In this document: one piece after another, positions 15,707 through 17,460 of the stretch
Layout: the number at the start of each line of letters is the position of its first letter
How positions within the stretch are numbered: position 1 is the first letter of the stretch
IMG/VR virus record: IMGVR_UViG_2879765931_000007
DNA from: a virus
Lineage: Duplodnaviria; Heunggongvirae; Uroviricota; Caudoviricetes
Direction: 5' to 3' (one strand)
DNA length: 47,296 nt
Position numbers: made by a program

Positions 15707-17460
15707 TGACCACTTCACTGAAACCATTGCCCACCACCAGGTTGATATTGATTTGGAGGACTAAAATCTATGGCGCTTTTTCAACGAGCAATAAACACAC
15801 AGGCCTATCTAAAAGCAGGAATTATGGGGTTTGCTGGCGACGGCAAAACCTACACAGCAAGCGAACTGGCTATTGGTCTGGTAATGCTTATGCGGCAACG
15901 GGGAATTGAAGCTGGTAACCGCCCGGTAATGTTTCTGGACACAGAAACAGGCTCTGACTGGGTTAAACCCCGCTTTGATGCGGAAAATATCGAATTATTT
16001 ACGGCAAAAACCCGCTCGTTTGTTGATCTGCTTGAAGCCATTAATGAAGCGGAAAGCAGCGGTTCCGTAATGATCATCGACTCCATCAGTCACTTCTGGA
16101 CCGGATTATGCGACGAGTATGCCAGACGCCGAAACCGTAAACGAGGACTGGAATTTTCAGACTGGGCGTGGCTCAAACAGGAGTGGCGACGCTTTACCGA
16201 TCGATTTGTTAACAGTCAGGCGCACATTATTATGTGCGGGCGTGCAGGATATGAGTATGACTTTTTCGAAGGTGATGATGGCAAACGCCAGTTGGCAAAA
16301 ACCGGTATAAAAATGAAAGCAGAAACAGAAACCGGTTATGAACCCTCCATCCGGATCCAGATGGAGAAGCAAATGAACATAGAAACCGGTCAGGTGTGGC
16401 GCACCGCCAGAATACTAAAAGATCGCTCCACCCGTATTGATGGACAGGTATTTTCAAACCCAACATTTAAAAACTTTCTTCCTCATATCGAGTCTCTTAA
16501 CCTGGGAGGTGAACACCCCGGCATCGATACCTCACGGGATAACAGTGAATTATTTGCCAACGACGGTACACCGACATGGCTAAAAGAAAAGCGTGCAAAA
16601 GAAATCGCACTTGATGAAATTAACTTGATGAAATTATCGAGTTGCTCAACAAGCACCATGGGGGCACCAGTAACGACGCCAAACGCGCAAAAGCTGATTT
16701 GCTGGAAAAAACATTCACCTCCCGCTCATGGGAAAGAATCAAAGGTATGGACTGGCCGACAATCAAAGCTGGTCGTAATGCACTATGGATTGAACTGGAA
16801 GGCGTTGAATATGCATTCCCGGATCCACAAACACAAAACGAAACGCAACAAGCAGGATACGATGAGAATATTCCGGTGTAAAACCAAGTGCATTTTGGGA
16901 ATGAACCGCCCCGGGAATCCTGGAGACTAAACTTCCTGAGAAAGAGGTAAACAGGATGACTAAAAATACTCGTTTTTCCCCCGAAGTCCGTCAACGGGCA
17001 GTCCGTATGGTTCTGGAAAGTCAGGGCGAATATGACTCACAATGGGCGACAATTTGTTCCATTGCTCCAAAGATTGGCTGTACGCCGGAGACTCTGCGTG
17101 TCTGGGGTCGCCAGCATGAGCGGGATACCGGGGGCGGTGATGGAGGGCTCACCACCGCTGAACGTCAGCGTCTGAAAGAGCTGGAGCGTGAAAATCGTGA
17201 ACTGCGCCGCAGTAACGATATCCTTCGCCAGGCTTCCGCTTATTTTGCGAAGGCGGAGTTCGACCGCCTCTGGAAAAAATGATGCCACTGCTGGATAAGC
17301 TGCGTGAGCAGTACGGGGTCGGACCGCTATGCAGCGAACTGCATATTGCCCCGTCAACGTATTACCACTGTCAGCAACAGCGACATCATCCGGATAAACG
17401 CAGTGCCCGTGCGCAGCGCGATGACTGGCTGAAGAAAGAGATACAGCGCGTATACGATGA

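Follow-up and report, generated by a model that had tools for sequence, protein, structure and literature searches.

A tandem duplication of 14 bp shifts the frame of a Sak4-like ATPase gene in the Rac-like prophage remnant of Shigella flexneri, removes the C-terminal region of the encoded protein, and most likely leaves a pseudogene. The gene lies in a virus sequence of 47,296 bp (IMG/VR record IMGVR_UViG_2879765931_000007), here called the window, by which we mean the whole stretch of DNA that was analysed. According to the scheme that we propose and regard as very probable, the window comes from S. flexneri and contains a Rac-like lambdoid prophage remnant, fragmented by insertion sequences (IS). 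Its early-left region carries, directly downstream of gam, a 365-aa ATPase gene, of which one S. flexneri sub-lineage has 14 bp duplicated head to tail. Translation past residue 284 then yields 102 unrelated residues and stops inside an IS629-type element. The RecA core (residues 1-284) is still encoded, but the conserved 81-residue helical region at the C-terminus is no longer made.

A perfect 14-bp tandem duplication in the ATPase gene

The duplication is a perfect head-to-tail repeat at 16609-16636 with the unit ACTTGATGAAATTA, and the sole array reported by Tandem Repeats Finder (period 14, 2.0 copies, 100% matches). The DNA from 16600 to 16650 reads AGAAATCGC ACTTGATGAAATTA ACTTGATGAAATTA TCGAG. 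An earlier note on this DNA, made by inspection of the sequence, had claimed that a phage ATPase gene is inactivated by a frame-shifting 14-bp tandem duplication. The duplication itself was described correctly, as two copies of 14 bp. The register in which the units were given (16611-16624 and 16625-16638) is two bases off, and in this register they appear to agree at 13 of 14 positions, while the true match at 16609-16636 is 14 of 14. There is no second perfect tandem duplication with a unit of at least 12 bp in the window, and the chance expectation for such a repeat is about 0.0002. The unit falls within codons 280-284 of the gene and, since 14 is not a multiple of three, the frame is lost past residue 284. 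The parts of the locus are as follows.

15770-16622, plus strand: 5' part of the ATPase gene, native codons 1-284, encoding the RecA-like P-loop core with the Walker A motif GFAGDGKT at residues 20-27
16609-16622, plus strand: first copy of the 14-bp unit, a single copy in all orthologues
16623-16636, plus strand: second, extra copy of the 14-bp unit, which causes the frame shift (from Tandem Repeats Finder and the orthologue comparison)
16637-16881, plus strand: 3' part of the ATPase gene, out of frame, with native codons 285-365 and the TAA stop, encoding the conserved C-terminal helical region (from the repaired translation)
15770-16930, plus strand: disrupted open reading frame (ORF) of 386 aa, consisting of 284 native residues and the out-of-frame tail of 102 residues

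The 386-aa frame does run into the IS629-type element, as the earlier note had said. The element starts at 16903, and the ORF ends 28 bases into it, with the last 8 codons and the stop codon inside. The tail had been called low-complexity, a description that does not hold, since its entropy is 4.07 bits versus 4.09 bits for the true C-terminus. The predicted 79-aa ORF in the other frame is present (16642-16881), and the in silico deletion of one unit joins the two parts into an ORF of exactly 365 aa (15770-16881), where about 365 aa had been expected. Past the duplication, the out-of-frame coding still specifies the orthologous C-terminus, and the repaired protein agrees with the recorded Shigella protein over 365/365 residues.

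The period-14 self-match spans exactly 28 bp, and the borders of the duplication are devoid of microhomology. This rules out an origin by slippage between flanking short repeats, and we infer a replication error without microhomology. The lack of microhomology would also fit a target-site duplication made by a transposable element that has since been lost. IS elements abound in the genome, and target duplications of 14 bp, although rare, are on record for IS1. However, no IS remnant is found between the units, and none of the genomes examined carries an element at the duplication site. Moreover, the known routes of IS excision in bacteria remove one of the copies or leave scars. We therefore regard a target-site origin as very improbable.

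Distribution of the one-unit and two-unit alleles

Both products are on record verbatim. The repaired 365-aa protein is listed as 'MULTISPECIES: AAA family ATPase [Shigella]' and found on at least 1000 contigs. The 386-aa product is listed as a Shigella flexneri protein and found on 19 contigs. Short-read contigs break at the flanking IS elements, where the frameshifted ORF is usually cut off, and do not serve here as a measure of its frequency. The comparison of genomes was based on 10 independent assemblies with the 386-aa product, of which nine are complete chromosomes and one is a draft contig, and on 10 complete chromosomes with the 365-aa product. The two-unit allele is carried by Y394 (serotype 1c), 93-3063 (serotype Y) and FC906, among others, and the single-unit allele by G1663 and AR-0425 (both 2a), 1205 (4c), 2013C-3749 (3b) and AR-0424 (Y). 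Within each class, there are no nucleotide differences from the window allele, or from the window allele minus one unit. The repaired DNA is identical to the intact gene in all ten single-unit S. flexneri chromosomes (1098/1098 nt). The string spanning the two-unit junction had no matches in species-representative genomes and JGI metagenomes; the representative S. flexneri genome SFBU1023, which has the single-unit allele, served as the positive control for the scan of the genome collection.

Outside S. flexneri, the gene is present at 98.6% identity in ten E. coli genomes, where it is annotated as 'AAA family ATPase'. These matches fall short of the query by 14 bases, and the alignment has a clean 14-bp gap opposite the extra unit. 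The E. coli orthologue from Rac-like prophages (WP_001173292.1, 365 aa) differs from the repaired gene in 3 nucleotides and from its product in 3 residues. The orthologue in Cronobacter phage phiES15, gp07 (YP_006590012.1, 366 aa), shares about 75% DNA identity with it. In both cases, gam lies directly upstream, the 14-mer is present once, and the frame is intact. The genes of E. coli, S. boydii and Cronobacter have only one unit, as do more distant homologues of about 355-376 aa, and their ends match that of the repaired ORF. The earlier note had suggested aligning the product of a one-unit deletion with homologues, and had named homologues that contain the duplicated segment and end like the 386-aa ORF as the finding that would speak against its reading. 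In an alignment of 25 sequences, none of the other 24, with identities down to 61%, has an insertion where the duplication lies; they can be aligned across the junction, and their conserved C-terminus is the one encoded in the repaired frame.

The duplication is thus real, derived, recent and limited to an S. flexneri sub-lineage, and it apparently represents a single event. An artefact of sequencing or assembly, which can be invoked for any such finding in general terms, is extremely improbable here, because the same 386-aa product and the same junction recur in 10 independent assemblies from differing laboratories and platforms (among them NCTC assemblies, the hybrid assembly of FC906, and Y394). 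We found no published description of a duplication in the ATPase gene, and the paper on the Y394 genome is silent on the locus and on pseudogenes. The 28-bp junction provides a clean marker, apparently of single origin, for the S. flexneri sub-lineage that includes Y394, 93-3063 and FC906.

Family and predicted function of the intact protein

The intact protein is a RecA-fold ATPase. It has a RecA/Rad51-like ATPase core with a Walker A motif, and residues 14-187 of the repaired protein match the Pfam family AAA_24 (PF13479) with 52.2 bits, compared to a gathering cut-off of 27 (E = 8.9e-14). The 'phage ATPase' of the earlier note was thus correctly named and can be specified as a RecA-fold, Sak4-like AAA_24 protein. 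The protein belongs to a family of RecA-fold prophage ATPases without an assigned function, which is well conserved, with identities of 60-75%, across Gamma- and Betaproteobacteria. The search identified 1975 homologues at E < 1e-5, typically of 355-376 aa and with 95-100% coverage, and homologues with 60-87% identity occur in Enterobacteriaceae, Pseudomonas and Burkholderiales.

The C-terminal region takes part in this conservation. In the 25-sequence alignment, the 81 residues past the duplication contain eleven invariant columns (K300, E308, R314, S315, W316, R318, R331, W335, L338, Y343 and P348). The structure model predicts a C-terminal extension with confident helices at residues 233-242 and 269-339.

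The intact gene product most likely acts like a Sak4-type ATP-dependent annealing protein, which would imply a role in single-strand annealing recombination. Sak4 genes frequently have a neighbouring cognate gene for a single-stranded DNA-binding protein (SSB), and in the sak4-ssb pair of HK620 the SSB stimulates annealing (PMC5928155). The order of ATPase and SSB genes in Achromobacter-type prophages recalls this pair. In two such loci, L025 and L026, the SSB gene directly follows the gene for the ATPase homologue, and the stop codon of the latter overlaps the start of the former (SSB at 6122-6577 in L025 and 6122-6583 in L026). The window, E. coli, phiES15 and 19 other loci have no SSB gene in this place, and the enterobacterial loci have gam upstream instead. 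There are also differences from Sak4. Members of the Sak4 family (HK620 HkaL, phage 80alpha ORF016, PDB 8rc5) have about 220 residues, whereas the repaired window ATPase has 365. Sak4 is a core-only RecA protein without an added domain (PMC5928155), whereas the window ATPase has a conserved C-terminal extension of about 130 residues. This extension includes a helical part, which the frameshift removes. We do not file the window ATPase as a member of Sak4, because it lacks the core-only architecture and because another sequence family matches it best.

Consequence of the frameshift

Since the conserved 81-residue C-terminal region is lost, the frameshifted gene is most likely a non-functional pseudogene. 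As regards the 'inactivated' of the earlier note, the loss of the conserved C-terminus stands, and the loss of function is a probable consequence, with the RecA core (residues 1-284) still encoded.

Several observations weigh against the reading that the duplication inactivated a Sak4-like gene. Some make the Sak4 assignment a loose one. The best family of the repaired protein is phrog_1366 (2.6e-79), which is annotated as of 'unknown function', and the match to the Sak4-like phrog_124 is weak and covers the core only (E = 6.9e-9). A profile search of the PDB with the ATPase returned no matches, and no NCBIfam model matches it. A tblastn search with Gam and SSB did not reveal a constant partner gene around distant homologues: Gam was found only at enterobacterial loci, and SSB only at Achromobacter-type loci. 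Other observations concern the inactivation itself. The retained RecA core may confer a partial or altered activity. In addition, the S. flexneri allele differs from the E. coli allele by L195R, F242S and L250P. All three changes are derived, other homologues agree with E. coli, and there are no synonymous differences. Because three derived non-synonymous changes at conserved columns are accompanied by no synonymous one, the gene may have been impaired, silent or drifting under relaxed selection before the duplication arose. Two results on the wider context of the ATPase are that PADLOC assigns it to no defence family, and that a Pfam search on ten downstream neighbours of homologues returned assorted families or none.

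An earlier death of the gene is also conceivable, although we consider it somewhat unlikely. It would make the duplication a real but neutral second hit in a gene that had lost its function or its expression in S. flexneri beforehand. The three substitutions are in line with this idea, particularly L195R, which affects a column with a conservation of at least 90%. So is the heavy degradation of the prophage, with its truncated RecE, an integrase split by IS1, and the IS629-type element only 21 bp downstream of the gene. However, a ratio of 3:0 is not significant, because about 42% of neutral triples are estimated to be entirely non-synonymous. Furthermore, the single-unit allele is an open ORF of 365 codons whose DNA is the same in 10/10 chromosomes and whose protein recurs unchanged on at least 1000 contigs. 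Genomes with this allele also retain an intact gam right next to an intact ATPase gene.

Little credence can be given to bolder interpretations of the allele. In one, it would be alive, either because the RecA-like core fused to the new 102-residue tail is expressed and retained, perhaps acting in recombination as a dominant-negative or altered factor, or because it is a reverting on/off switch. In a more modest version, phrog_1366 would represent an uncharacterised class of Sak4-like recombinases with an essential C-terminal helical region, and the allele would be a natural knock-out of this region. The preferred explanation is plainer, namely ordinary lineage-specific pseudogenisation in a Shigella prophage remnant. 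Other lineage-specific frameshift pseudogenes of Shigella likewise combine a small out-of-frame indel, a dispensable gene, fixation in a sub-lineage, IS elements in the surroundings, and intact orthologues in E. coli or other Shigella. The sole peculiarity in the present case is that the indel is a clean tandem duplication of 14 bp whose flanks share no microhomology. The case adds to the examples of gene decay in Shigella, whose dispensable prophage genes gather IS elements and small indels, and it has little import alone. The natural pair of alleles, with products of 365 aa and 386 aa that differ only in the C-terminal region, could serve to probe the role of this region.

Flanking insertion sequences, gam and the order of events

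The ATPase gene is flanked by two IS elements, one of which interrupts gam.

14193-14469, plus strand: 5' part of gam, encoding a host-nuclease inhibitor (from annotation, a BLAST comparison with E. coli gam, and matches of the called genes to Pfam Gam)
14470-15717, plus strand: IS911-family element inside gam, with a 3-bp target duplication (from BLAST against annotated E. coli genomes)
15718-15764, plus strand: 3' end of gam, the last 47 nt including the stop codon, with 5 bp between it and the start codon of the ATPase gene
16903-18207, plus strand: IS3-family element of the IS629/IS3411 type, 21 bp past the true stop codon of the ATPase gene

The element at 16903-18207 is, judging by its OrfA sequence, presumably an IS629. 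Copies in E. coli with 99.5% identity are annotated as 'IS3 family transposase' with an ALIL pseudoknot. The copy in the window is degraded, with orfB split into ORFs at 17279-17635 and 17497-18165. What it replaces in the Rac-like prophages of E. coli is a stretch of about 350 bp with the DUF1187 gene (7171-7520 in the E. coli locus L001). The split of gam by the IS911-family element creates a spurious fusion ORF of 216 aa (14193-14843).

The junction between the 3' flank of the ATPase gene and the IS629-type element is common to 20/20 loci, one-unit and two-unit alike. The IS911 insertion in gam is present in 9/10 genomes with the duplication and in no single-unit genome. The remaining duplication genome, FC906, has an intact gam; it carries an IS911 copy instead at the position equivalent to about 13680 of the window. 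Because the IS629 junction is found in all 20 loci, IS911 in gam is confined to duplication genomes, and FC906 lacks the gam insertion, the events can be ordered: the IS629-type insertion came first, then the duplication, and then the entry of IS911 into gam. The 28-bp junction and the IS911-in-gam junction together thus order three events in time. All of them are very recent, since FC906 and a single-unit strain differ by only 2 mismatches and 2 gaps over 4952 bp.

This distribution also bears on the possibility that the two-unit state is one side of a reversible switch, or that the frameshifted protein has a retained or new function under selection. Perfect tandem duplications can revert by slippage, the frameshifted ORF remains open for 102 codons, and it has acquired no further mutations in the 10 genomes that carry it. 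Nevertheless, there is very little to recommend either version. The copy number is only one or two among the 20 genomes, and the two-copy state follows the lineage marker of IS911 in gam, so that the locus does not behave as a phase-variable one, whose repeats, usually in several copies, would vary in number among close relatives independently of lineage. An event as recent as this one, with 2 mismatches in 4952 bp between the allele classes, would be expected to show no further mutations. The tail is without homologues, its stop codon falls inside an IS element by accident, and the sequence contains no slippery site or nearby stop codon that would support recoding.

The prophage remnant and its surroundings

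The gene order around the E. coli orthologue is Rha, YdaE, truncated RecE, Gam, ATPase, DUF1187, XisR, IntR and ttcA, which is that of a Rac-like prophage. In Cronobacter phage phiES15, the order is kil, gam, ATPase, DUF7740, methylase, xis and int. In the window, the prophage is a decaying remnant. As in E. coli, RecE is truncated, and the integrase is split by IS1 into an N-terminal ORF (18382-18558) and a C-terminal ORF (19308-19961), with the IS1 ORFs in between (18569-19266). The homology to the E. coli Rac-like prophage stops at about 20062, roughly 50 bp into ttcA-like sequence.

The remnant is bordered by genes of a different kind. On one side lies an ipaH-type gene for a type III effector (4209-5924), with LRR and NEL E3 ligase domains and 60-bp LRR repeats. 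On the other side is a sitABCD-like operon for a metal ABC transporter (20423-23872), with ZnuA, ABC_tran and two ABC-3 genes. These nearby virulence-associated genes are plausibly the only part of the region that is still under selection. The density of IS elements is extreme and typical of Shigella: the window contains seven copies of an 819-nt (272-aa) IS3-family ORF and, besides these, several ORFs of IS1, IS911-type and other IS elements.

Further downstream, the non-coding stretch 28620-29236 is packed with short tandem arrays of at least five kinds, whose units measure 9, 10, 11, 12/24 and 47 bp. It adjoins an integrase-family ORF of 498 aa on the minus strand (29542-31038), and the arrays could be iterons or arm-type binding sites of another integrative element.
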